From positions 1 through 24,154 of IMG/VR virus record IMGVR_UViG_648276670_000008: a stretch of 24,154 bases of DNA; one strand, 5' to 3'. Shown here one piece after another: positions 1 through 11,322 of this stretch. This stretch comes from a virus (lineage: Duplodnaviria; Heunggongvirae; Uroviricota; Caudoviricetes). Positions within the stretch are counted from its first letter, which is position 1; each line of letters opens with the position of its first letter. A model generated the notes under the pieces. That model made no database searches, was not told the origin of the DNA, and worked only from the letters and a program-made list of their open reading frames with translations. The position numbers were made by a program, and so were the translations under genes.

Positions 1-1158
1 ATGCTCACCGTTAAACAGATTGAAGCAGCAAAGCCGAAAGAAAAACCATACCGCCTACTCGATGGTAATGGCCTGTACCTTTATGTCCCTGTATCCGGAA
101 AAAAGGTCTGGCAGCTTCGCTACAAGATTGACGGTAAGGAGAAAATCCTGACCGTAGGAAAATATCCGCTAATGACTTTGCAGGAGGCAAGAGATAAAGC
201 ATGGACCGCGAGGAAAGACATCTCGGTTGGCATCGATCCGGTAAAAGCGAAAAAGGCTTCGTCTAACAACAATTCCTTTAGTGCGATTTACAAGGAATGG
301 TACGAGCACAAGAAGCAAGTCTGGTCAGTAGGCTATGCAAATGAACTTGCAAAAATGTTTGATGACGACATTTTACCTATCATCGGCGGCCTTGAAATTC
401 AGGATATTGAGCCGATGCAACTACTGGAAGTAATCCGCAGATTTGAAGATCGCGGGGCAATGGAGCGAGCCAACAAAGCCCGCAGAAGATGCGGCGAGGT
501 TTTCCGTTACGCTATTGTCACTGGTAGGGCTAAATATAACCCGGCACCTGACCTTGCAGACGCCATGAAAGGATACCGCAAGAAGAACTTCCCGTTTCTT
601 CCTGCAGACCAGATCCCGGCATTCAACAAAGAGCTGGCAACATTTTCAGGAAGTATCGTATCGCTCATTGCCACCAAGGTTTTACGCTATACAGCCCTAA
701 GAACGAAAGAGCTTCGTTCCATGCAATGGAAGAACGTCGATTTTGAAAACAGGATTATCACCATCGACGCCAGTGTGATGAAGGGACGCAAAATTCATGT
801 GGTCCCGATGTCAGACCAGGTGGTTGAACTTCTCACTACGCTAAGCTCTATCACCAAACCAGTATCAGAGTTTGTTTTTGCCGGGCGCAACGATAAGAAA
901 AAGCCAATCTGCGAGAACGCGGTGCTACTTGTGATCAAACAAATCGGCTATGAAGGTCTGGAAAGCGGTCACGGATTCAGGCATGAATTCAGCACGATTA
1001 TGAACGAGCACGAATGGCCCGCCGACGCCATTGAAGTGCAACTGGCACATGCTAACGGCGGTTCTGTGCGCGGGATTTACAACCATGCTCAGTATCTCGA
1101 TAAGCGCAGAGAAATGATGCAGTGGTGGGCGGACTGGCTTGATGAAAAGGTGAAGTGA
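1..1158 (+). CDS. int: Tyrosine integrase, P4-like family (site-specific recombinase)
   Basis: 385-aa ORF starting with ATG at nt 1. The N-terminus (MLTVKQIEAAKPKEKPYRLLDGNGLYLYV...WQLRYKIDGKEK) has the arm-domain pattern of P4-type integrases. The C-terminus has an H-x-x-R box (GHGFRHEF) and a likely tyrosine nucleophile in VRGIYNHAQYLDKR. The N-terminus looks complete although the gene begins at the window edge. Confidence 0.9.
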   Translation: MLTVKQIEAAKPKEKPYRLLDGNGLYLYVPVSGKKVWQLRYKIDGKEKILTVGKYPLMTLQEARDKAWTARKDISVGIDPVKAKKASSNNNSFSAIYKEWYEHKKQVWSVGYANELAKMFDDDILPIIGGLEIQDIEPMQLLEVIRRFEDRGAMERANKARRRCGEVFRYAIVTGRAKYNPAPDLADAMKGYRKKNFPFLPADQIPAFNKELATFSGSIVSLIATKVLRYTALRTKELRSMQWKNVDFENRIITIDASVMKGRKIHVVPMSDQVVELLTTLSSITKPVSEFVFAGRNDKKKPICENAVLLVIKQIGYEGLESGHGFRHEFSTIMNEHEWPADAIEVQLAHANGGSVRGIYNHAQYLDKRREMMQWWADWLDEKVK

Positions 1159-1395
1159 TCTACCTTAATAACTATCGAATAGCATAAATCCTTGCAATCC
1201 AGTACAAATCTTCTTGTGTCTGAATTTTAGACATTACTCATGCAAGTTATCGATCGCTAAGGATTTTGGTGATAGACTCCACATCGTTATAAAGGCTTGT
1301 TGTGCAGATTGGCTATCAACTACCACAATGATACTTGGTGTGCATCATACTAACATTGTTACTGATTATCACTTAAAATTAATTGGCATAAGGTA

Positions 1396-2463
1396 ATGAA
1401 CAGAAATAATTCATTCGATATTGCAAGACATATTGCTGCGCTAGCTGTTATTTTCAGCCATCACTTTGCATTCAATGGCATTCCTGAACCAAAAGTTTTA
1501 GGAATAACAAAACTTGGAACCTTTGCTGTTTTAGTTTTTTTCTCTATATCTGGGTATCTAATTGCAGGAAGCTATCTAAATAGCAGTTCTTTACAATCAT
1601 ACTATACAAAGCGTATAAAAAGAATCTTTCCAGCACTAATAGTATGCTCATTTGTCATGATATATATCATATGCCCTATTTTCGGTACAGGAAATGGCAT
1701 AGACTACATCTTATCAGAGAATGCATTTATTGCATTTTTAGACTACTCAACTCTTGGTTGGCATCCAAGCGACATAAATGGATTTGCCAGTAACTATATT
1801 CATAAGAATATGTTAAATGGAAGTTTATGGACTCTTGGATTTGAGTTTACAGCCTATGTGTTATTATCAATAATTTTATTTAGAAAGAAAAATATCATAG
1901 CATCAACATTTTTTGCTATTTGCTTTTTTATTGTTATCCAGTTATCCATTTTGAATGGCATAAAAATACCTCACACAGGTGATCTTAATAGGCTATCTCT
2001 TCTATGCACTACGTTTTTATGTGGTTCTTTGTTATATATTACAAGAAGTTATTGGTCCACAACAAGTGCAAAAATCACTCTAATAGTATTAGCTTTATCA
2101 TGTGCATTATTTATAAGTGAAAAAAATGAATATGATCTAATGTTTTATATTTCTGTTCCATTCTTTATAGTTCCATTATGCACATTGTTTACAGACAAAA
2201 TAATCAACGGCAAGTTTGATATATCTTATGGGATGTATATTTATGCTTATCCGATTCAGCAAATAATTGTAAACAAAGCTAACCTAGGATTTTATGGTTC
2301 ACTGTTTACGTCTTTATTATTAATAATTATTTTAGCTTGCGCATCGTGGTTACTTATTGAAAAGAGATTTTTGGTAAAAAGTAAAAGAAAGCAAAGGAAA
2401 TGTCGCATGTATGTTAAGCACTCTCTTATCTGCACATTGTATATATTGGTGAGCATTATATAA
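1396..2463 (+). CDS. Acyltransferase family 3 integral membrane protein, putative O-antigen O-acetyltransferase (Oac/OafA-like)
   Basis: 355-aa, very hydrophobic multi-TM ORF with ATG start. It carries AT3-type motifs (VLVFFSISGYLIAGSY and RIKRIFPAL) and a size close to phage Oac. The coding sequence is very AT-rich. Confidence 0.8.
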   Translation: MNRNNSFDIARHIAALAVIFSHHFAFNGIPEPKVLGITKLGTFAVLVFFSISGYLIAGSYLNSSSLQSYYTKRIKRIFPALIVCSFVMIYIICPIFGTGNGIDYILSENAFIAFLDYSTLGWHPSDINGFASNYIHKNMLNGSLWTLGFEFTAYVLLSIILFRKKNIIASTFFAICFFIVIQLSILNGIKIPHTGDLNRLSLLCTTFLCGSLLYITRSYWSTTSAKITLIVLALSCALFISEKNEYDLMFYISVPFFIVPLCTLFTDKIINGKFDISYGMYIYAYPIQQIIVNKANLGFYGSLFTSLLLIIILACASWLLIEKRFLVKSKRKQRKCRMYVKHSLICTLYILVSII

Positions 2464-2633
2464 TGTATTATTGTTGCAGCCTGATACATTATAAAGCAGA
2501 CATTTATGCTTGATGTTTTTTAGGTGTTGGTTTTCATAATTCACAACCACACACGTATAACAAACATTAAGACATATCGTCCAAAAGATAGTTTATGTTA
2601 CAATTTTAAAGAATAAACTTAAGATAATTGCAT

Positions 2634-2948
2634 ATGTTCAAAATTTTTTTAAAAGGAACCAGCGTACCAAAAGAAATTCTGTCCTTTCACAGGAGAAGTC
2701 ATGAAAGCGTACTTCCAAAGAGAGTAGAATTTACAAGAGCTGTTCTTATAACAGAAAAATATGGCGAGATCCATGTTAGACCAATTTATGGAATATTAAA
2801 AGCAAACAGTATTTACATTGATGAAATTGGCGGATGTATAGTAAAAGGCGGTATTAATGGTACAATTATTCACAACCTGCCAATATTTAACTTACCATCA
2901 ATAACAATAATGTTATTAATTGTAGCTTTGGCGTTAAATTATGTTTAA
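2634..2948 (+). CDS. Hypothetical protein (weak call) in AT-rich spacer
   Basis: The ORF-track start at 2628 is TTG; the first ATG is at 2634, giving 104 aa. There is no convincing Shine-Dalgarno. The stop overlaps the wzx-like start by 8 nt. No recognisable family. Confidence 0.2.
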   Translation: MFKIFLKGTSVPKEILSFHRRSHESVLPKRVEFTRAVLITEKYGEIHVRPIYGILKANSIYIDEIGGCIVKGGINGTIIHNLPIFNLPSITIMLLIVALALNYV

Positions 2949-4176
2949 TAAATTTGCTGTCCTCAGAAATTTTGCATCGCTAGGGTTAATGCAGGTCATT
3001 AACTATGTGCTTCCTATTGTTATAATACCGTTCCTGGTTAATAAAATAGGAATTTATAATGTAGGCTTAATTGCAACATTCACCGCCATAGCGGCATATA
3101 TGCAGCTAGTTATAGATTATGGCTTCAATCTTTCTGCAACAAGAAATATATCAAAGGACGGATATGATGATTATCATGCATCGATAATAAGCAGTTCTGT
3201 TTTTGTCATAAAGGTGACAATGTCATTAGCATTAATTGCATTATCATTTTTCATTATGAAATTGGCGTCAAACTCAGAAGAACATATAATAACATTTATG
3301 TTTACAGTTGGCATTGTTGTTTTTCAGTCTTTATTTCCAGTTTGGCATTTTCAAGCCGCAGAAAGAATGCACTACATAACAATGTGTAATGGTGTACCAA
3401 AATTGATATCAGCCTGCATGATTTTTTACTTTGTAAGCTCTCCAGGTGATACATGGAAGGTGCAGGCATGCTTTATGTTAGGAGCCGCAGCATCTTTTAT
3501 TTTATCTTTGTTTATTTTGAAATCTAAATTTAATTTTAGGTTATTGATATCATTCACTGAATGCAAAAATCAGATTATTGATGGGTATGCTATTTTTTTA
3601 GCACGATTGGCGTCAGGGCTATACAAAAATTTCAATGTGCTTATTCTCGGAGCATTTGCTGGAACTGCGGCAGTAGGAACTTATTCTATCGCAGAAAGAA
3701 TAATAAGAAGCGCTCAAATGGTTCAGAATGTAGTTGGTGATACTCTTTACCCTTTATTCTCTAAAGAATTTACTGGCAATAAATTATTTTTCAAACACGC
3801 AGCAGATAAATACAAGTGGCATATAATAATATTTTACACTCTTGCATCACTAGCTATTTTCTACCTCTCTGGAATAATTGGGAAAATAATGGGTGGGGCA
3901 TCAGCAGATAATGTATCCTCTTGCCTTAAAATAATGTCAATCGCCTTTCTTTTTGGCGGGATGAACTACGTTTTAGCTATACTTGGATTAACATCTTGTG
4001 GGTATGCCAAACAATTTTCATTGTGCGTAATATCGGCAGGTTTGTTTAATGTTCTATGTGCTACTTTTTTATCTTTTTTCTTTTCTTATTATGGAACTTC
4101 AGTAGCTCTTGTTTTAAGCGAGTTTTTTCTCCTTTGCTTTGTTATTTTTTATTCTAAAAGGACTGGTATACTATGA
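2941..4176 (+). CDS. wzx: Wzx-like polysaccharide/O-unit flippase (polysaccharide biosynthesis protein, MOP/PST superfamily)
   Basis: 411-aa multi-TM protein. The N-terminal region (LMQVINYVLPIVIIPFLVNKIGIYNVG) resembles the conserved Wzx/PST N-terminus. Very AT-rich. Its stop overlaps the downstream GT2 start (ATGA at 4173-4176). Confidence 0.75.
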   Translation: MFNKFAVLRNFASLGLMQVINYVLPIVIIPFLVNKIGIYNVGLIATFTAIAAYMQLVIDYGFNLSATRNISKDGYDDYHASIISSSVFVIKVTMSLALIALSFFIMKLASNSEEHIITFMFTVGIVVFQSLFPVWHFQAAERMHYITMCNGVPKLISACMIFYFVSSPGDTWKVQACFMLGAAASFILSLFILKSKFNFRLLISFTECKNQIIDGYAIFLARLASGLYKNFNVLILGAFAGTAAVGTYSIAERIIRSAQMVQNVVGDTLYPLFSKEFTGNKLFFKHAADKYKWHIIIFYTLASLAIFYLSGIIGKIMGGASADNVSSCLKIMSIAFLFGGMNYVLAILGLTSCGYAKQFSLCVISAGLFNVLCATFLSFFFSYYGTSVALVLSEFFLLCFVIFYSKRTGIL

Positions 4177-5066
4177 CTCCATTTACTACTGTCTTGGTTA
4201 CATATGCTGATAGAGGCCACCTGTTAAAACAAGTTGTATCATCAGTAGTATCATCCGGGTGTGATAATATAATTATTATAGATAATGGGAGTCATGAGAG
4301 TAGCAAGAAAATAATAAACTCGATGCCTGTTAATTATAGTGACATAAAATTCACTATTCATAAAAATGAAAAAAATGAAGGCTCCGCGATTGCATTCGGC
4401 ATTGGGATGGATCTGGCATCAAGTAATGAAAACAAAAATGAAATAGTGTTATTTCTGGATGATGACAATCTACCTAAAGATGGAGCAATTCAAGATGCCA
4501 TCAAATTCTCATTGTCAGATAATGAGAATAAAAATGTTTACTTTTTGCTCCGTGAAGACAGGCCGCACTATATTGAATTTGTAAGAACAAAAAACCAAGA
4601 TGTTCTCCTTGGAGAAAAAAACTCTTTTATGTCATTCACTTTGAAAAAATACTTAAAAAGCATAGTAAATAAGCTTAACAAAACAGAAATACAAGAAAAG
4701 TATGATTCATTCAGCGATAGTTGCATTCAAATCCCTTGCGGTCCATACGGAGGAATGTTAACAAAAAAATCAATCTTATCCAATGGGATAAGACCATTCA
4801 AAGATATGGTGTTATATTTTGACGATACAAAATATACTTATGATCTATCATTATCTGGAGTAAAGCTATTTCTTTTGACAAAATGTTTCATTAATGATAT
4901 TGATGATTCATGGTCAGCGGTTAAAACAAAAAAACATCCTCACCACTCTTTGAGGCTGGTGAGTTTAAAATATCACATACAATTAGAAATAGGGTGTTTT
5001 TTGAACTTTACGCGACAACAAACAATGTGCCAATATATGTTGTTAATATATTTTTCTTCATGTTAA
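4173..5066 (+). CDS. Glycosyltransferase family 2, WbbL-like (soluble, cytoplasmic-face type)
   Basis: 297-aa ORF. N-terminal GT-A pattern (TTVLVTYADRGHLLKQVVSSV...IIIIDNGS), a DxD-like LFLDDDN motif, and a C-terminal region resembling WbbL-type rhamnosyltransferases (GGMLTKKSILSNGIRPF...VLYFDDTKYTYDLSLSGVKLF). No C-terminal TM anchor of the GtrB type is evident. Translationally coupled to wzx. Confidence 0.7.
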   Translation: MTPFTTVLVTYADRGHLLKQVVSSVVSSGCDNIIIIDNGSHESSKKIINSMPVNYSDIKFTIHKNEKNEGSAIAFGIGMDLASSNENKNEIVLFLDDDNLPKDGAIQDAIKFSLSDNENKNVYFLLREDRPHYIEFVRTKNQDVLLGEKNSFMSFTLKKYLKSIVNKLNKTEIQEKYDSFSDSCIQIPCGPYGGMLTKKSILSNGIRPFKDMVLYFDDTKYTYDLSLSGVKLFLLTKCFINDIDDSWSAVKTKKHPHHSLRLVSLKYHIQLEIGCFLNFTRQQTMCQYMLLIYFSSC

Positions 5067-5149
5067 TTTTGTTTGTAAAAGCTTTGACATCTAATAACAT
5101 GAGAACATTTTTGAAAATATCAAAATATATCATTGATGGTGTTAGGTTT

Positions 5150-5178
5150 TATAAAGAAAAGGCCCACTAAGTGGGCTT
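5150..5178. terminator. Bidirectional intrinsic terminator between convergent GT2 and tailspike genes
   Basis: GC-rich inverted repeat GGCCCAC-TAA-GTGGGC(T) at 5161-5177, flanked by an A-run upstream and TTTATCT downstream on the plus strand. On the minus strand the stem is followed by TTTTCTTTAT, so it fits best as the tailspike terminator. Confidence 0.5.
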
Positions 5179-5188
5179 TATCTGAATA

Positions 5189-7093
5189 TTAAAACTCTGG
5201 AGCATACGTTCCTGAGACAAAAATAGTGGCACCCAGTGATTTAATAAAATCAGGTTTCACCAGAAGGCCACGCAAAGATACGGCAACCCATTTGCTGGTT
5301 TGAACGTTTGCTGCCTGTACCAAAGTTTTTGTAGTTGAGGGAGCATACACACCAACAGTTGCCTGCGGGTCTTCTAACGTTGTAGTGGTGTAATAAGATG
5401 CTATTGGTATTCTGGTTGTATGACCATGAGTTAATGTGACATTCCCATTTCCGGTTGGTTCTGCATTGACAATTGATGATACCCAAGATGGTGGTATTGT
5501 AGGGGGTCTCCCATACCTAATCTCCCCAGTATCTACATTAACTATAATTTCTAGATCTGCGTAGATTGACACTCGTAAGTTGTAGTCTTTCCCTACGTTG
5601 AACCTGTCAGCAATTGCGTAAAGTCCGGTAGTAAGAGATGATCTATCCATGTCCGCAGTGAAGTCAAACCAACACGCTGCGTTATCAGAAACTGTAAATA
5701 AAAGAGAGTTATCATCTTCAGCCACAGCAACCTTACAAAAATTAGAAGGACGAATGACGCCAGTATCGTTATTAATATTTAAAATTTGCCATGATGAGCT
5801 CGAAGATGCATAACGCGCGGCAGCTGCGCAGTGTTTTGCTCGTAACCAAGGAGCGATGCCATTTGCCGTATACTGCATAAAGTCATTGACTGTCTTTGTC
5901 TTTGTTCCTCCAGCTTCCACTGACCAGAGTCCTCGGGCAGCGCCAGCCCCCATTGTGTTATAACCTTTTTGGGTATAATGCACACCTTCTGTACCAACGT
6001 TTCCATCGCGATTCAAAAAAGATGGGCAGCCATCAAAAGCTGTAACAGCAATATCTCTACCATTGACAACGTAACGCTGTGCGTTTTGAATAGTTTGCCA
6101 AGAATATTCTGGTCTATTTTTAGGGCACCCTACCGTACAGTTCGCGAATCTTGCCATAGGTATATCTGAAGATAGATCATCTATAAGTTTCACGAAAAGT
6201 CCGCGATAAGTATCAAATGATGTGCCATTTAGTTGATCTGTTTCCCCTTGGTGGAAAAGAACGTATACTTTACCTACAGGAAGCTCCTGAGTATTCATTC
6301 TTGCAAGTGTGTTATTAACAGACGACACCAAAAGCTCATAATAACCATCACCAACTGGTGATTTAGATAATTGAGAAATTGATGTTGCTCCACGTCCACA
6401 ATGTACAACTACAGCTCCCCTTCCGCTTAAACGATACCATTCATTGGCAAACTCCCCCCAGGCATGCCCTGAGGATGCAACTCCCGATGAACTAACCATA
6501 TTCTGAATTATTGGCTTTATAGTTCCATCCCTGAAATCGTACATTAACGATTTTGGAAGAGGGTCAGGAAAGCCAGATGTATCACCTGATAAAATAGCCT
6601 CGCCTGCACTATTTGACTGCCCATACGTAACAAATATATCGTATACATCTGGTGACTCAAGATATTCTGTCGCAATAACATTACTTGCTATTTTTGATGC
6701 TGTTACTCCAGATATTATTGCTGAACTATTATTTTCTGATAGCCTTCTTTCTAATTGATCTGGATCATACTTCAATACATTTGGAAAATAGAACTGCTGC
6801 GAACCATACGCATCATAAACAGCCATAGAATGTCCTTGCACGGTAACGAACTTGGCAATCTGTCCGTTATATACCGGATATCCAGCAGCGTTAATGGTGA
6901 TTGGTTGAGAAACAGGAACGTGAGAACCGTCCTCGCTCTCCATATAAACCTGAATCTGGTTTTCAGGATTTACAGGATCAGTGTCAATCTGACCGATATA
7001 AATTTTACCATTGGCATTAGCTTTAAATGAACGAGATAAAGTAAATAATTGACTTGGTTGCGATACAACGATATTTGGCGTGATATCTGGCAT
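5189..7093 (-). CDS. 9: Tailspike protein: P22 gp9-type head-binding domain fused to a SASA/SGNH-type esterase-like receptor domain
   Basis: 634-aa ORF with ATG and GGAG Shine-Dalgarno. The first ~115 aa closely match the P22 tailspike N-terminal head-binding domain as I remember it (…[24 protein letters not shown]…TVQGHSMA…NVLKYDPDQ). The remainder is unrelated to the P22 beta-helix and carries esterase-like motifs GQSN (158-161), QGETD (282-286) and a His in GVHYTQ (372). Confidence 0.9.
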
Positions 7094-7195
7094 TGATTTG
7101 CTCCTGGCATAGAAAAGCTGTGTAAGATATAACTTTCACAGACTTGCATTAAATTCGGTTAAAATTAGTTAATTACTCTGGGTGGAGGGTTGGCT

Positions 7196-7273
7196 ATGCA
7201 AAGAGATATGCTGAATATTGCGTTCTACATATTTGGTTTTTGCACGTTCCTGGTGTTTGCGAAGCTATTCTGA
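7196..7273 (+). CDS. Candidate small hydrophobic peptide (25 aa), speculative
   Basis: ATG at 7196 preceded by a strong GGAGG Shine-Dalgarno (7184-7188, 7-nt spacer). It encodes MQRDMLNIAFYIFGFCTFLVFAKLF, a single predicted TM helix. Below the ORF-track size cutoff. Convergent with gene 16 and overlaps its 3' end by 9 nt. Confidence 0.25.
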   Translation: MQRDMLNIAFYIFGFCTFLVFAKLF

Positions 7274-9262
7274 CAACGCATCAGACTTGGTACCCTGAGT
7301 CAGGGCGTTAATGGCCTTTTGCGCCTGCTGCATGGCTTTCTCAAACGCTGTTGATCCGCGTGGTGTGTTTGCCATTCGGAGCATTGCATTTCTGAATGGC
7401 TCGCTCTCATAGGCGCGAGTAAGAAGTCCGTAGCTTACCGCTGCGCCAGTTGTCGCCGGGTTCATTGCTGTCCCATACCCGATAATGAACGGGATGGTTT
7501 GCTGCCCTGTTGGTGTTGTTACTGCCGCTTTTGCAGCCTGCTGCGTGGATTGCAGGTAGTTTTTCAATCCTTTCAGATAAGCAGCGTCCTGCCCCTTAAA
7601 TGTGATGCCAGTCTGGTTTTGCAGGATGTTAAGCTGTAGAAGGAACTGATCAGGGGAACCACCTGATTTCTCCATCGCCTTTCCAATGATGCCATTGCGC
7701 ATTTGTGCCCTGCCAACACGACCAACTGAGTTATACAGCGTCTTAATTTCAGATTTGTTCTTGCTGAATAGCATGTTATTGACAACTTCCGGCGTCAGGT
7801 CGCCTTTCATGAGAACATTCTTCAGCCTGGTATTCTTTAGTTTCGCCGCTTCGTCAGCGTAGACGGCATTGGCCTGCTGATATTTACGGAGAGTATCGTT
7901 GCCAAGATTCTGACCAATGGCACCATTGATATCGTCGGTCATTGCCTTGTAAACGCGCTGAATTGCGGCATCGGAACGGTTTGGTAACACTGGTCGCTCA
8001 CCCTTCACGTCCATTCTGAACTGGCTGCGCAGATCGCTTAACTGCTTCAAATCCAGATTGACCGGACCATCAGGACCAACATTGCGAACAAGCTCATCAC
8101 GATATGACTGAAGTTTTGAAATCGTCTCATTATCAGCGACCTTACCAAGCTTCTGCAGGTTAGATATTTCTGTATCAATCTGCTGAATTGCTCGCGCAGG
8201 CTGAATGTTTACTCCAGCCATAGCATTCTGAACCTGCTCCAGTCGATTACCGGCAGCACGACGAATTCCTGATGTTTTCGCTTTAAGGCTGTCAATAACA
8301 ACTGCCGGATCGTACTCGCCGAATTTATCGGCAAATCTCTGCACCAACTGGCTTCTCGCTTCCTGTTGCGTTGCTCTCATTCCGCTTGTGCCAGCCAGAG
8401 GGATATTTTCCGCTGTCGTCTGCGCCATTTTACCGATGCGGGAAGTCGGTTGTAACAGGTCTGTGGTGTGCAGAGGCACGCCTTCACGCTCTGCAAACTT
8501 GATAGCCTGTTGCGCTTCGGGTGATATCGAACCACGAACACCACGATAAGCAGCACCTAATCCACGTCCGGCAGCGTTAATAGCACCGCCAGCCAACACA
8601 CCAACGCCTAAATCGGTGGCGAGTGCTTCCGCATCATCTTTCGCACTATTTGCAGCAAGTGATCCAACTGCGTTTTCTGCCAGAAGGCGAGTTGCCCCCT
8701 GAGCGATTCTACCAGCGAGTGTTGGTGCCTGTGTTGCCGCTCTCTCAATGCCAGCAGGAGTGAGGTAAGGCAATGCTTCAGCAAATACCCTTCCCTCTGT
8801 CGTTTGTGGAGTCAGCGCGCCTTGCTGAAGGCCAAAGTCCTGCTCTAATCCCTGCGTTGTTACTCGTGGCGCTGGTTGATATGTACCATCGCCAATGCCG
8901 AGTTTACCGCCAGCCCAAGCCGCCGCGCTTGTTACAGCATCGGCGACTGATGCAGGTATGTTTGCCACGTTCACGCCAGCCTGCACCAGTCCGCGACCAG
9001 TCTCTTTTACTGCTTCGCCAAGATCAGACATAAATCCACTTTGCTGTGGTTGTTGCTGTGCTACTGGTTGCTGTGTCTCCACTGGCTGCACAGATGGCAA
9101 TGGATAGGCAGCATAGAAAGCTTGCTTAGCCTGCTCTGCATTTTCTCCGGCTTGCGGGGCCACGACTTCATTGAAGTATTGCTCCTGAGCCTGCGCTTTT
9201 TGTTCTGGTGCTAACGCCTGATACTGTGGAGAGGCGATAACATCTTTCCATGCTTTAGCCAT
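7265..9262 (-). CDS. 16: Ejection (E) protein, P22 gp16-like
   Basis: 665-aa ORF in the position and order of P22 gene 16, with ATG overlapping the gene 20 stop (TAATG). Gly/Ala/Gln-rich composition typical of ejection proteins. Confidence 0.85.
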   Translation of the reverse strand: MAKAWKDVIASPQYQALAPEQKAQAQEQYFNEVVAPQAGENAEQAKQAFYAAYPLPSVQPVETQQPVAQQQPQQSGFMSDLGEAVKETGRGLVQAGVNVANIPASVADAVTSAAAWAGGKLGIGDGTYQPAPRVTTQGLEQDFGLQQGALTPQTTEGRVFAEALPYLTPAGIERAATQAPTLAGRIAQGATRLLAENAVGSLAANSAKDDAEALATDLGVGVLAGGAINAAGRGLGAAYRGVRGSISPEAQQAIKFAEREGVPLHTTDLLQPTSRIGKMAQTTAENIPLAGTSGMRATQQEARSQLVQRFADKFGEYDPAVVIDSLKAKTSGIRRAAGNRLEQVQNAMAGVNIQPARAIQQIDTEISNLQKLGKVADNETISKLQSYRDELVRNVGPDGPVNLDLKQLSDLRSQFRMDVKGERPVLPNRSDAAIQRVYKAMTDDINGAIGQNLGNDTLRKYQQANAVYADEAAKLKNTRLKNVLMKGDLTPEVVNNMLFSKNKSEIKTLYNSVGRVGRAQMRNGIIGKAMEKSGGSPDQFLLQLNILQNQTGITFKGQDAAYLKGLKNYLQSTQQAAKAAVTTPTGQQTIPFIIGYGTAMNPATTGAAVSYGLLTRAYESEPFRNAMLRMANTPRGSTAFEKAMQQAQKAINALTQGTKSDALSE

Positions 9263-10617
9263 TAATCACCCCATAGTGAAGAAAAGTTACTGCTGGCTGC
9301 TGGCTGTGATACCTGTGCAGGTTGAGATTGCTGCCGCTGAGATTTACCAACATTAACGTTATATTGTTGGTTGTAATTGTTGGTGTATTCCTGAATCTCA
9401 CGAATCGACTGCTGCATAGCCTCCGGGCTTGAATAGTCAACCTGCGGCATCCCCTGAAAATACATCTTCGCTTCTGCAACGGTGTTAATACCACTGGCAC
9501 CCATGTCCCTTGCTGCCGCCACACCCTGATTCTGCATTCTGCCCTGAATCCGTTGTGCTGAGTTATATAACTGGCGCTGCTCTTTTCCTGTTAATCGGCT
9601 GCGAACATCAGCACCAATTGCTGGATTACCTGCACCGCCTGTCATTCCTGTCATGAAATCTAGAGCAGAAGCGTCTGCATTTGCGATCGCGTCGATATCC
9701 TTCTTCATGGCATAGTTTTGTGCTGATGCAGACGATGTTGCAGGCGCTGCGATTGAACTGGCAGGAACGCGAACCATATTCCCCTCGTTGTCGATGCCTT
9801 CGTAGAACGCATTAGCCCCAGCGCCATGAAGCTTCCCGCCGACAGTTACAGTTCTGCCATCTGATAACTGAACTGTACGCTCATCATTCCCAGCAGTTCC
9901 TCTTGTTGACGATCGCTGCATTGCCAAATCCTGACCGCGCATCGTGATGTTCTGACCACGCGCTGTTAGTGCTTCTCCAGCCTGATTGCTGCGGATTGTC
10001 TCTGCCAGTCTGCCTCGGTCAATCTCACGACCCGCCATCTTGTCCTGAACATTGAAGTAGTCAATCGGACCGAGAGCAGCCATTCCAAGGTGATCAACAA
10101 ACTCACCAAATCCTGAAGGGTTCTGCTGATACATCTGAGCAACGCTGTTAGGGTCAACACCGACGCGAGTCAGTTCCTTGGCGTTGTTTTGCAGCCATGA
10201 TTGCATTGCTTCTGGAGATGAGGCAGCAAGGCGTGCGCCAGCAGCTAAGGTGCCGATAGAATTGCGCTGGTCTTCATCAATGAATCCCATGCCTTTGCGA
10301 ACAGATTCAATCTGGTCTGGATATTGAGTAGCTAACTGACGCAAAGCACCGCGATCACCAGACGCATAAGCATTAGCGTATGCCTGCTGAAATTCTTTCT
10401 GCCGCTGAGCCTGCTTTTCCTGCTGAAACACCCCCGCAATACCTGAAAGGCCTTGCAAAGCAGTCAGCCCAACATTGTTAGCGCCTGAACGCTCAATATC
10501 ATTGTTCTGCCTGATAAGCTGAAGCGTATTGCCGATGTCATTTACGTTCGGAGCGTTTGAGTTGACACCACCGATACCAGCCAACAATCCGCCATTTTTT
10601 CCTTGCCAAGTAGCCAT
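9262..10617 (-). CDS. 20: Ejection (E) protein, P22 gp20-like
   Basis: 451-aa ORF with ATG start, at the syntenic position between the gene 7 and gene 16 homologues. Confidence 0.85.
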
Positions 10618-10626
10618 GATTACCCC

Positions 10627-11322
10627 TTAAAACAACGATCCAAGCAGGCCAAGTCCGCCGCCAATTGCCGCACCTAATCCAGTGCCAAGTCCTGGAACAA
10701 TAGAGCCAAGAGCAGCGCCAGTCATAGCCCCTGAAGCTCCGCCGCTAATTGCTGTCTGAAGACCTGATGGTTTATTGGCGTTAGCAGCGGCAAGTGCTGC
10801 GCTTTGCTGTGCAATGCTGCTCATGTTGTTGGCGTACGTCTGCCCGGCGTTTGCCTGACCTTGCAGAGCACCAAGCCCAACGTTTGCCAGATTGTTGTAA
10901 TTGCTCATCTGGTTTGATAACCAAGACTGACCGAGAGTCGGCGCGATCGTAGCCAGTTGATTGCTTGTGGCTGTCGAACCAAGTCCTCCCGTAGCCTCCG
11001 CAGCAGCAAGACTCTGGTAACGAGCCTGGCCTGCAAGGTCTTTATACTGCTGAGAGTTGTAATACTGATTAAGTACCTGACCCTGTCCTTCTAAACTGGA
11101 AAGGTTCTGAAGCTGGTTAACATACTGCTCCGCAAGAGGCGTGAACTGAGCAAGGTTTTTCATGATCGTCTGCCACTGCTGATTTTGCAGGTCTGCGGCA
11201 TACTTCTGAGCTTCTGCTGCATACTTTGCGCTTTTATCAGAGCTACCACCTTTCCCGCCTTTTTCATGGCAATAAGGTTCCTCGCCGCGCAGTTTTCTGC
11301 CCAGCTTAAATGCATATAACAT
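10627..11322 (-). CDS. 7: Ejection (E) protein, P22 gp7-like
   Basis: 231-aa ORF whose N-terminus (MLYAFKLGRKLRGEEP…KGGKGG) resembles P22 gp7; syntenic position. Confidence 0.75.
   Translation of the reverse strand: MLYAFKLGRKLRGEEPYCHEKGGKGGSSDKSAKYAAEAQKYAADLQNQQWQTIMKNLAQFTPLAEQYVNQLQNLSSLEGQGQVLNQYYNSQQYKDLAGQARYQSLAAAEATGGLGSTATSNQLATIAPTLGQSWLSNQMSNYNNLANVGLGALQGQANAGQTYANNMSSIAQQSAALAAANANKPSGLQTAISGGASGAMTGAALGSIVPGLGTGLGAAIGGGLGLLGSLF

Follow-up and report, generated by a model that had tools for sequence, protein, structure and literature searches.

A P22/Sf6-like E. coli prophage carrying an Oac-like acetyltransferase gene and three further candidate sugar-modifying genes next to an esterase-like tailspike gene

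Several systems are known in which phages add groups to, or remove groups from, the surface polysaccharide that serves as their receptor. According to a recent study of Klebsiella (Otwinowska et al., PLoS Biol 2026, PMC13123978), O-acetylation by prophages is an accepted exclusion mechanism for Sf6, D3 and others, esterase RBPs are common in prophages and acetyltransferases are found in 5-30%, and a layer of phage specificity and superinfection exclusion consisting of acetylation and deacetylation is explicitly proposed. For coliphage G7C, the single thoroughly studied phage with an esterase-only tailspike, hosts without O-unit acetylation are fully resistant, and the acetyl group is made by a host gene, wclK (PMC10743462). 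The tailspike gp20 of the temperate Salmonella phage epsilon15, which has an SGNH "petal" esterase, deacetylates the O antigen (bioRxiv 10.64898/2026.07.31.742079). In the Gtr system, a three-gene prophage cassette (GtrA/GtrB/GtrC) next to the tailspike gene adds a sugar and changes the serotype (PMC7685785).

The locus presented here belongs to a P22/Sf6-like prophage of E. coli, in which an Oac-like acetyltransferase gene and three more candidate sugar-modifying genes are found together with an esterase-like tailspike. The window, which is the whole stretch of 24,154 nt analysed, is identical to assembly GCA_000176635.2. A preliminary description of this DNA had paired an AT3 acyltransferase gene with an esterase-type tailspike gene about 3 kb away. 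Both genes are present as described and the spacing holds (2,725 bp), but three co-oriented genes in the gap had been omitted: those for a small membrane protein (2634-2948), a Wzx-like flippase (2941-4176) and a GT2 glycosyltransferase (4173-5066). Our preferred explanation, with a probability of about 0.55, is that the locus represents a "receptor module" of the Sf6 type in a P22-like temperate phage. The esterase tailspike gene is convergent to lysogen-expressed genes, and the surface polysaccharide bound by the tailspike (in all probability the O antigen) would be remodelled by their products; conversion would hamper re-adsorption, and no dedicated write/erase circuit would be involved. 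The following features were assigned, with their basis in brackets.

1..1158, plus strand: tyrosine integrase, IntS type (PF00589, PF22022, PF13356)
1229..5170, plus strand: low-GC cargo, putative four-gene lysogenic-conversion cassette (composition, homology breaks)
1396..2463, plus strand: Oac-like AT3-only O-acyltransferase, 355 aa (PF01757, phrog_3333, identity to Sf6 Oac)
2634..2948, plus strand: small protein, 104 aa, one C-terminal membrane helix (orthologues; helix at residues 80-106)
2941..4176, plus strand: Wzx-like (MOP superfamily) oligosaccharide flippase, 411 aa, about 12 membrane helices (PF01943)
4173..5170 (called ORF ends at 5066), plus strand: GT2 glycosyltransferase (PF00535)
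5162..5176, minus strand: terminator-like site at the convergent junction, just past the tailspike stop codon (consensus scan only)
5189..7093, minus strand: tailspike, 634 aa, with P22-type head-binding, SASA esterase and C-terminal beta-rich domains (Pfam)
6755..7093, minus strand: head-binding (virion adaptor) domain, residues 1-113 (PF09008, E 4.6e-65)
5909..6646, minus strand: SASA/SGNH-superfamily esterase domain, residues about 150-395 (PF03629)
5192..5851, minus strand: C-terminal beta-sandwich, residues about 415-634 (secondary structure of the model)

The integrase, which is 95-99% identical to those of Sf6-, HK620- and CUS-3-type phages, marks the prophage end at an argW-side attachment site, and the host genes yfdC, mlaA and fadL are located just past it in the sister loci. 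Homology to other P22-like phages ends about 60-70 nt past the int stop codon and restarts in the head-binding domain of the tailspike. The GC content of the cargo between them is 0.32, compared with 0.50 in the phage backbone and 0.43 in the receptor part of the tailspike gene, and no near match to the cassette was found among 5,426 complete E. coli genomes. The site at 5162..5176 consists of a GC-rich hairpin followed by a T-run and presumably acts as a terminator.

The AT3 protein matches PF01757 (Acyl_transf_3) over residues 4-319 of 355 (E 4e-20) and phrog_3333 "O-acetyltransferase" (E 2.5e-36), and its full-length alignment with Sf6 Oac shows 34% identity over 337 residues (E 3e-61). Its length of 340-355 aa, depending on the assembly, is like that of Oac (333 aa), and it has nine to ten hydrophobic segments with neither a second domain nor a fused SGNH domain. 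PDB sequence searches with AT3 and with GT2 gave nothing useful. Residues R11, H22, FFxISG (48-53), R73, R76, P79, W145, E150, Y154, S277 and Y281 are conserved in 139 AT3 homologues; for R11, H22, F48-F49-x-I-S52-G53, R73 and R76, all of which are aligned with Sf6 Oac, conservation is 0.99-1.0 (0.91 for I51). Oac itself cannot function without the Arg/His pair of TM1, FFxISG and RxxR. Since AT3 resembles Oac and keeps all family-invariant residues, it is a credible surface-polysaccharide O-acetyltransferase.

Comparison of the window with six sister assemblies revealed two single-base deletions, both in A-runs. One of them, near 2379-2382, shortens the run by 1 nt and gives an AT3 of 355 aa as against 340 aa in the sisters; this frameshift falls past the last membrane helix and only the C-terminal tail is changed. 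By the other, one base is lost from the A-run at 4928-4934, so that GT2 has 297 aa in place of 332 aa in the six sisters and its C-terminal membrane helix is gone; the 332-aa form was recovered by inserting one A. Because GT2 is frameshifted here, the cassette may be partly inactive in this assembly.

The tailspike lies directly downstream of the genes for gp16, gp20 and gp7, a P22-like position, and its head-binding domain matches the N-terminus of the Sf6 tailspike (E 4.2e-60). PDB sequence matches are confined to residues 1-120 (Sf6 and P22 tailspikes), and residues 116-634 were modelled (pLDDT 86). In the model, an SGNH-type alpha/beta esterase domain, matching PF03629 at residues 151-387 (E 6.9e-13), is followed by a beta-sandwich; no Pfam match to a beta-helix depolymerase domain was obtained in the tailspike. 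Judging from the model and the Pfam result, the tailspike is P22-type by attachment only and not by enzymology. The predicted nucleophile is Ser160 (6614-6616, GQSN motif), with His372 at 5978-5980. S160 within YGQSNS, G209, H281-Q-G283-E284 and H372 are invariant or nearly so in 32 homologues, down to 26% identity; E369 is conserved in less than 90%, leaving the acidic member of the triad uncertain. The Pfam name "SASA" would imply a specificity for sialic acid, but we did not assume one, since acetylxylan-type esterases are found beside NanS among the best structural matches. Temperate phages are increasingly seen to have esterase-only tailspikes where others have depolymerases; few of these tailspikes have been studied and, to our knowledge, none of the studied ones is of the present SASA type or on a P22-like virion.

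In an 87% identical tailspike allele, the C-terminal domain and the last third of the esterase domain are replaced. In a nucleotide comparison with the E. fergusonii allele, identity amounts to 63-72% across 5200-6100, 100% across 6200-7200 and 97-100% across the cassette, and thus two tailspike alleles, from E. coli and E. fergusonii, share one cassette. A dedicated search found DNA of the esterase part in only 6 of the 5,426 complete E. coli genomes. Relatives in GenBank (Klebsiella KP8, K48PH164C1 and others) carry annotation only, and no characterised member of this RBP family was found; species-representative genomes yielded only Lelliottia, in addition to unrelated cellular SASA enzymes. 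Since RBPs 53-56% identical to this tailspike are present in lytic Klebsiella phages, its receptor could be a capsule rather than the O antigen.

The preliminary description had proposed a specific pairing of AT3 with the esterase, in which AT3 either modifies the receptor so as to exclude related phages or creates the epitope that the phage's own tailspike processes. An AT3 HMM was built from 118 homologues and iterated, and the scan covered 80 P22-like tailspike loci from IMG/VR together with about 20 informative SASA-RBP lineages carried by phages; the lineages were dereplicated by hand and their counts are approximate. AT3 was found near the esterase RBP in about 4/20 lineages and between tailspike and integrase in about 8/41 non-esterase P22-like tailspike types, so that no enrichment beside esterase RBPs was seen, with about 20% in both sets. 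Hidden esterases among the AT3-positive control tailspikes were ruled out, as beta-helix or other domains were found in them. The nearest relatives of the window AT3 (75%, 68% and 66% identical) do not track esterase RBPs either, being located by non-esterase RBPs or by no RBP, and esterase tailspikes 68% and 56% identical to that of the window, in the same prophage type, lack AT3. A specific pairing is thus not supported, while the more general idea of the preliminary description, a single module linking receptor specificity to lysogenic conversion, agrees with the data. The AT3-esterase adjacency itself is most likely a by-product of the usual layout of an RBP plus conversion genes. Some related esterase tailspikes are without any conversion genes, and the phage can thus do without the cassette.

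These results bear on a true write/erase system, in which the prophage AT3 would install the acetyl group that its tailspike both binds and hydrolyses, and lysogeny would make or maintain the receptor in the host population. Esterase tailspikes do require an acetylated receptor (PMC10743462), and AT3 lies directly downstream of an esterase-type RBP in four independent AT3 lineages, namely the window, Enterobacter/Lelliottia (with a convergent RBP-AT3 overlap of 37 nt), L040 (an AT3-SGNH fusion) and L052; the Enterobacter/Lelliottia pair has moved jointly between two backbones (RBP 82%, AT3 78% identical). However, an AT3 expressed only after lysogeny cannot furnish a receptor on naive hosts, lysogens that adsorb better would waste progeny, and AT3 is equally frequent beside both tailspike classes. 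We therefore regard this reading as quite improbable, and as the less likely of the two put forward in the preliminary description.

The three genes between AT3 and the tailspike form a conserved triad. The small-protein gene is the first of them and overlaps the start of the Wzx-like gene by 8 nt. The window copy of the small protein has no Pfam or PHROG match, and the Hafnia copy matches DUF7618 weakly, below threshold; orthologues of the small protein in Hafnia, a metagenomic phage and K. pneumoniae (51-60% identical) are always encoded directly upstream of a Wzx-like gene. The flippase matches PF01943 over residues 7-275 (E 1.6e-41) and has about 12 hydrophobic segments, as expected of a Wzx domain. 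It matches the NCBIfam Wzx-like and TuaB models weakly, and since the Wzx models score far under their cut-offs, its sequence represents a distant, unnamed Wzx subfamily. No PHROG family was assigned to it, and only three weak metagenomic matches were found in 50,697 deposited phage genomes. In the alignment of GT2, the DDD motif and 22 further columns are invariant. The best fold matches of its model (pLDDT 93.5) are TarP, GlfT2 and GalNAc transferases, with TarP the best Foldseek match (E 2e-9; identity only 15%). As modelled, GT2 resembles cytoplasmic enzymes with lipid-linked or polymer acceptors (TarP, GlfT2) and not polyprenol-phosphate sugar synthases of the GtrB/DPMS type, although its C-terminal membrane helix is also compatible with the latter. 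A Gtr-like reading of the triad was rejected, GtrA and GtrC being absent and the GT2 fold being nearer to TarP/GlfT2; no Gtr signature (GtrA PF04138, a GtrB-type GT2 or a GtrC-type multi-helix periplasmic transferase) was found within the window. Hafnia has a complete gtrABC set next to its triad, and the two are therefore distinct systems.

In three phage backbones, 11-23 nt separate the triad from the stop codon of a related esterase RBP: those of the P22-like window phage, of L135 (a siphophage-type prophage of Hafnia) and of L140 (a metagenomic phage whose tip is J-like). The components have diverged in parallel (RBP 66-68%, Wzx 65-71%, GT2 56-65% and small protein 51-56% identical), and on both grounds the triad is a more faithful partner of the esterase RBP than AT3. 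It is possible, although we consider it doubtful, that the esterase RBP and the triad are a portable, co-evolving receptor module hopping between backbones. The triad would then be an undescribed route of seroconversion, in which the lipid-linked repeat unit is given a branch by the phage glycosyltransferase while still in the cell and is exported by a dedicated flippase, with the Oac-like AT3 added on top and the host range set by branching together with the writing and erasing of acetyl groups.

The same linkage has to be weighed against the absence of any functional link, namely that the targets of AT3 (and of the triad) differ from that of the tailspike in molecule or position, with no influence of one on the other. 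Their proximity would then reflect nothing more than the standard site of cargo insertion in P22-like phages, the int-tailspike junction. The cargo at this junction does vary greatly in P22-like phages (none, an IS element, an esterase-like gene, several AT3 lineages, or neuO in CUS-3), the GC difference between cargo and receptor part points to separate origins, and AT3 is not enriched. However, the retention of the triad with the esterase RBP at a tight convergent junction, with parallel divergence in three unrelated backbones, is hard to explain without selection for co-retention, and AT3 is all-or-none within tailspike clusters (5/5, 3/3 and 2/2). Moreover, every characterised conversion gene at this position that we know of (Sf6 oac, P22 gtr) alters the receptor of the tailspike. 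We therefore think that the absence of a link is unlikely.

In the preferred reading, that of an Sf6-type receptor module, gene identities, folds, conserved catalytic residues and linkage patterns are what was observed, and from them we infer the substrates, the side of the membrane on which GT2 acts and the consequences for adsorption. The tailspike, having no depolymerase domain, would bind the O-acetylated glycan of a naive host and strip its acetyl group as the G7C tailspike does, and deacetylation would let the short-tailed virion get to the outer membrane. This acetyl group must pre-exist on the naive host and would therefore be host-encoded. After lysogeny, GT2 would place a sugar on the lipid-linked repeat unit at the cytoplasmic face, the Wzx-like protein would flip the altered unit, the small membrane protein would help the cassette in some way, and the Oac-like AT3 would acylate in the periplasm at a position not cleared by the tailspike. 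The serotype would be changed, and the phage and its relatives would adsorb poorly, which would give superinfection exclusion and spare released progeny from dead-end adsorption. The exclusion reading of the preliminary description is the standard one and our best guess.

The acetyl group might also be written by competitors: the esterase tailspike would strip the marks made by the AT3 of rival heteroimmune prophages while its own AT3 adds one through which rivals cannot read, resulting in an acetyl arms race. P22-like prophages often carry AT3 (it accompanies about 20% of their tailspike types), which would make acetylated hosts a frequent target, several AT3 lineages adjoin esterase RBPs, and (de)acetylation as a layer of phage-phage competition is proposed for Klebsiella prophages (PMC13123978). 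Nevertheless, this scenario is entirely inferential, no sign was seen that the substrate is prophage- rather than host-written, and an esterase-only tailspike that must take the virion through the polysaccharide layer implies an acetyl group that is regular and abundant, as one encoded by the host would be. We consider this scenario very unlikely.

The write/erase idea is less remarkable, as the gene order is canonical and the concept of acetylation and deacetylation has already been proposed for Klebsiella prophages. The locus is in E. coli, where work is tractable, and its virion type is well understood. It could be used to ask whether deacetylation alone brings a short-tailed phage through the O antigen, how a prophage protects its host from an esterase-bearing relative, and whether a flippase-plus-glycosyltransferase cassette is a new route of serotype conversion. 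Such a route would bear on serotyping and glycoconjugate vaccine targets, because related Wzx-GT2 pairs adjoin the O and K loci of E. coli and K. pneumoniae.

Among known systems, the Gtr cassette is likewise a set of three prophage genes beside the tailspike, whereas the triad has a 12-helix Wzx-like MOP flippase and a TarP/GlfT2-like GT2 in place of GtrB, and lacks GtrA (PF04138) and a GtrC-type transferase. TarP of a Staphylococcus aureus prophage is similarly a GT-A/GT2 enzyme that works from the cytoplasm to re-decorate a glycopolymer of the cell surface; it differs in its wall teichoic acid substrate, its Gram-positive host and the lack of a dedicated flippase partner. The epsilon15 prophage, too, alters how the O antigen deacetylated by its tailspike is acetylated. 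In that phage, which belongs to another lineage, the esterase is joined with an endorhamnosidase, and conversion suppresses acetylation and adds no acyltransferase. The Klebsiella study deals with capsule-specific prophages, and its accessible part reports no adjacency or co-inheritance of AT3 or Wzx/GT2 with an esterase RBP (PMC13123978). A close known system is coliphage G7C, whose tailspike gp63.1 (PDB 4QNL) is an SGNH esterase that deacetylates the O antigen. Sf6 shares with the window the phage type, the attachment-site integrase, the gene order int - oac - tailspike and its orientation, a full-length Oac homologue (34%) and a nearly identical N-terminal domain of the tailspike. There are two differences from Sf6: its tailspike is a beta-helix endorhamnosidase, whereas that of the window is an esterase without a depolymerase domain, and Sf6 has oac alone, whereas the window adds the small protein, the Wzx-like flippase and GT2 between AT3 and the tailspike.

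The 24-kb window covers the half of a P22/Sf6-like prophage (Lederbergvirus type) that lies nearest the integrase. Its sequence matches scaffold GL884282.1 of E. coli assembly GCA_000176635.2 without a difference, and at least six other assemblies have the same prophage, adjoining the host genes yfdC, mlaA, and fadL; carriers include GCA_017763145.1 and GCA_027275105.1. The late operon, on the minus strand, runs from the terminase and portal genes through those of the ejection proteins gp7, gp20, and gp16 to the tailspike gene, which is the last. The interval between integrase and tailspike is a 4-kb block with a GC content of 0.32 versus 0.50 in the phage backbone. The best-supported reading of the region, with the following features, is that of a receptor module.

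1-1158, plus strand: tyrosine integrase
1396-2463, plus strand: AT3 acyltransferase (PF01757, E 4e-20; phrog_3333 'O-acetyltransferase', E 2.5e-36)
2379-2382: first A-run indel, A4 versus A5, in the AT3 tail
2634-2948, plus strand: 104-aa protein with one C-terminal membrane helix
2941-4176, plus strand: Wzx-like flippase, 411 aa (PF01943, E 1.6e-41)
4173 onward, plus strand: GT2 glycosyltransferase
4928-4934: second A-run indel, A7 versus A8, in GT2
5189-7093, minus strand: tailspike, 634 aa (P22-type head-binding domain, residues 1-113; SASA esterase family match, residues 151-387)

The preliminary description paired AT3 with the tailspike as possible writer and eraser of acyl groups. Both genes are real, and what it passed over is the intervening 2.7 kb, which holds three co-oriented genes with overlapping boundaries, for the small membrane protein, the flippase, and GT2 (the triad; with AT3, the cassette). 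The AT3 assignment is confirmed by both family matches, by an alignment spanning the full length (34% identity, E 3e-61) with the characterised phage Sf6 enzyme Oac, which acetylates the O antigen, and by the retention of all residues near-invariant among 139 homologues (R11, H22, R73, R76, and the FFxISG motif among them). None of the three triad proteins matched a PHROG family, and no real counterpart of the flippase was found among 50,697 deposited phage genomes.

Over 17 kb, only two indels separate the window assembly from all six of its sisters, each a one-base loss in an A-run of a cargo gene. The first alters only the last residues of AT3 (355 aa versus 340 aa in the sisters), and the second shortens GT2 from 332 to 297 aa, with loss of its C-terminal membrane helix. 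Either the assembly miscounted homopolymers in this AT-rich stretch, or the frameshifts are genuine and possibly phase-variable.

The predicted structure of tailspike residues 116-634 (pLDDT 86) places a beta-sandwich domain after an alpha/beta esterase domain and has no beta-helix. In 32 homologues, down to 26% identity, there is no substitution at G158, G209, H281, G283, E284, or H372, and conservation is at least 90% at Q159, N161, and the predicted nucleophile Ser160; the conserved blocks are the GQSN motif, the block II glycine, the HQGE block, and the block V histidine. Because the SASA match, the modelled fold, and these residues agree, "esterase-type tailspike" is sound as a predicted label. 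DNA of the esterase part is rare in E. coli (6 of 5,426 complete genomes).

The same cassette is also found beside another tailspike allele, 87% identical to the window's, in E. fergusonii and E. coli. Between that allele's locus and the window, nucleotide identity is 97-100% over the cassette and 100% from the head-binding domain through most of the esterase domain, versus 63-72% over window positions 5200-6100, which encode the last ~310 spike residues. By this alignment the allele is a mosaic in which the distal spike part alone has been cleanly exchanged, which suggests that specificity is set there rather than in the front of the esterase domain. The only isolated phages found to have this receptor-binding protein (RBP) family are lytic, infect Klebsiella, and resemble N4 or T7 in size (records H55-H64; KP8, vB_Kpn16-P2, VLCpiA3a/b, and K48PH164C1 among them); over 93-94% of the receptor part, their proteins are 53-56% identical to the window's. 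The module therefore serves capsule-bearing hosts and strictly lytic phages too.

The pairing of AT3 with an esterase does not stand out as special, since four tests were negative. Sf6 has exactly the window's order of integrase, oac-like gene, and tailspike, and its tailspike is an endorhamnosidase. In a control sample of 80 P22-like tailspike loci from IMG/VR, which gave about 41 informative non-esterase tailspike types, AT3 occupies this position in ~8 of the 41, whose spikes have beta-helix or other domains; four independent AT3 lineages are adjacent among ~20 informative phage lineages with the window's esterase RBP family, so that the frequency is ~20% for both. The nearest relatives of this AT3 adjoin a non-SASA P22-type tailspike (75% identical) or a different RBP in Cronobacter (68%), or lie at a lambdoid prophage end without an RBP (66%). 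Lastly, beside esterase tailspikes 68% and 56% identical to the window's, in the same prophage type and at the same attachment site, the cassette is replaced by an IS element or by nothing. A true write/erase cycle on a single acetyl group would suit the adjacency of the two genes and, set against these tests, is quite improbable. In the related P22-like Escherichia phage vB_EcoP-683R2, the slot between integrase and tailspike holds a gene annotated as a "lysophospholipase L1-like esterase", of SGNH type (L001 2127-2663), in place of the acyltransferase and adjoining an 800-aa tailspike.

RBPs 76-81% identical to the window's are followed by a different AT3 in Enterobacter and Lelliottia, on different backbones (P22-like in Enterobacter; siphophage-type, with a different N-terminal adaptor, in Lelliottia). 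These AT3 copies are 78% identical to each other and 22-24% to that of the window. Because both are convergent to the RBP with the same 37-nt overlap, the RBP-AT3 pair has moved as a unit. In Lelliottia sp. WAP21 (L018 9611-14426), AT3 is flanked by two SASA-domain proteins, the 650-aa RBP on the overlapping side and a second one of 517 aa, 187 nt off, on the other.

From the gene orders compared, the most consistent partner of the esterase RBP is the triad. Esterase RBPs adjoin it in three phage backbones; its gene order is kept in a prophage of Hafnia paralvei and in a metagenomic phage whose tail tip is J-like, the stop codons of GT2 and RBP lying 11-23 nt apart, and the RBP (66-68%) and the three triad proteins (51-71%) have diverged similarly. 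The unit (~105-aa single-helix protein, 411-aa Wzx-like flippase, ~332-aa GT2), for which deposited phage genomes gave no counterpart, lies at the following positions.

2634-5170: window
8462-10999: L135, the Hafnia prophage
71-2620: L140, the metagenomic phage
8456-11002: L142, a further compared locus

Complete functional independence of spike and cargo would fit the equal AT3 frequencies; beside the recurrence of the triad, it is rather unlikely. The Hafnia prophage also has a complete gtrABC glucosylation set (L135 4446-7193), 1.3 kb from the triad, with a 322-aa ORF of weak beta-helix signal between them; one phage thus carries two different sugar-adding systems. Many K. pneumoniae genomes have a phage-free triad, next to IS1, at the argW-side site. 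Wzx-GT2 pairs alone occur in K. pneumoniae between the K and O loci and, in one E. coli genome, between ugd and wzzB. These pairs (L138 8769-15527, K. pneumoniae; L133 11998-14216, E. coli SW070917) are 46-64% identical to the prophage pairs. The former is inserted between ugd/epimerase and the wzm-wzt-wbbM O locus, accompanied by an EpsG-type polymerase-like gene and a 525-aa protein without known family; the latter stands beside an IS remnant.

As a receptor module, the region may work as follows. By analogy with G7C, the tailspike would have an O-acetyl group of the naive-host polysaccharide as its recognition target and would cleave it off. Hosts without O-unit acetylation, which depends on a host gene, are completely resistant to G7C (PMC10743462). 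Since a prophage AT3 is unable to supply the receptor at first infection, the proposal that AT3 creates the epitope processed by its own tailspike is argued against. The cassette would act once lysogeny is established. The GT2 model (pLDDT 93.5) is nearest to TarP, GlfT2, and GalNAc transferases and not close to GtrB-type carrier-sugar synthases. The former work from the cytoplasm, adding sugars to lipid-linked or polymeric acceptors. From this resemblance we infer that GT2 may branch a lipid-linked repeat unit, which the Wzx-like protein would export; the Oac-like AT3 would then add an acyl group outside the cell. The expected result would be a new serotype, to which the phage and its relatives would adsorb less.

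Tailspike-adjacent AT3 genes are textbook knowledge, and esterase tailspikes are known from G7C and Pectobacterium PP99. They are also known from epsilon15 (bioRxiv 10.64898/2026.07.31.742079) and, in PMC13123978, from Klebsiella prophages, for which acetylation/deacetylation was earlier proposed as a layer of phage competition. An arms race, with esterase spikes clearing acetyl marks left by rival prophages, would suit that proposal; for the present spike, with its putative naive-host substrate, we consider it very improbable. Serotype change with reduced adsorption is generally accepted as what the Sf6 oac, P22 gtr, and D3 conversion genes bring about (PMC13123978; PMC7685785). No description of the triad as a phage conversion system was found in the literature, PHROG, or deposited phage genomes. 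Against these known systems, three things appear new: that a P22-like virion has a SASA-type, esterase-only spike, that this spike is rare in E. coli, and that it is linked to a flippase-glycosyltransferase triad.
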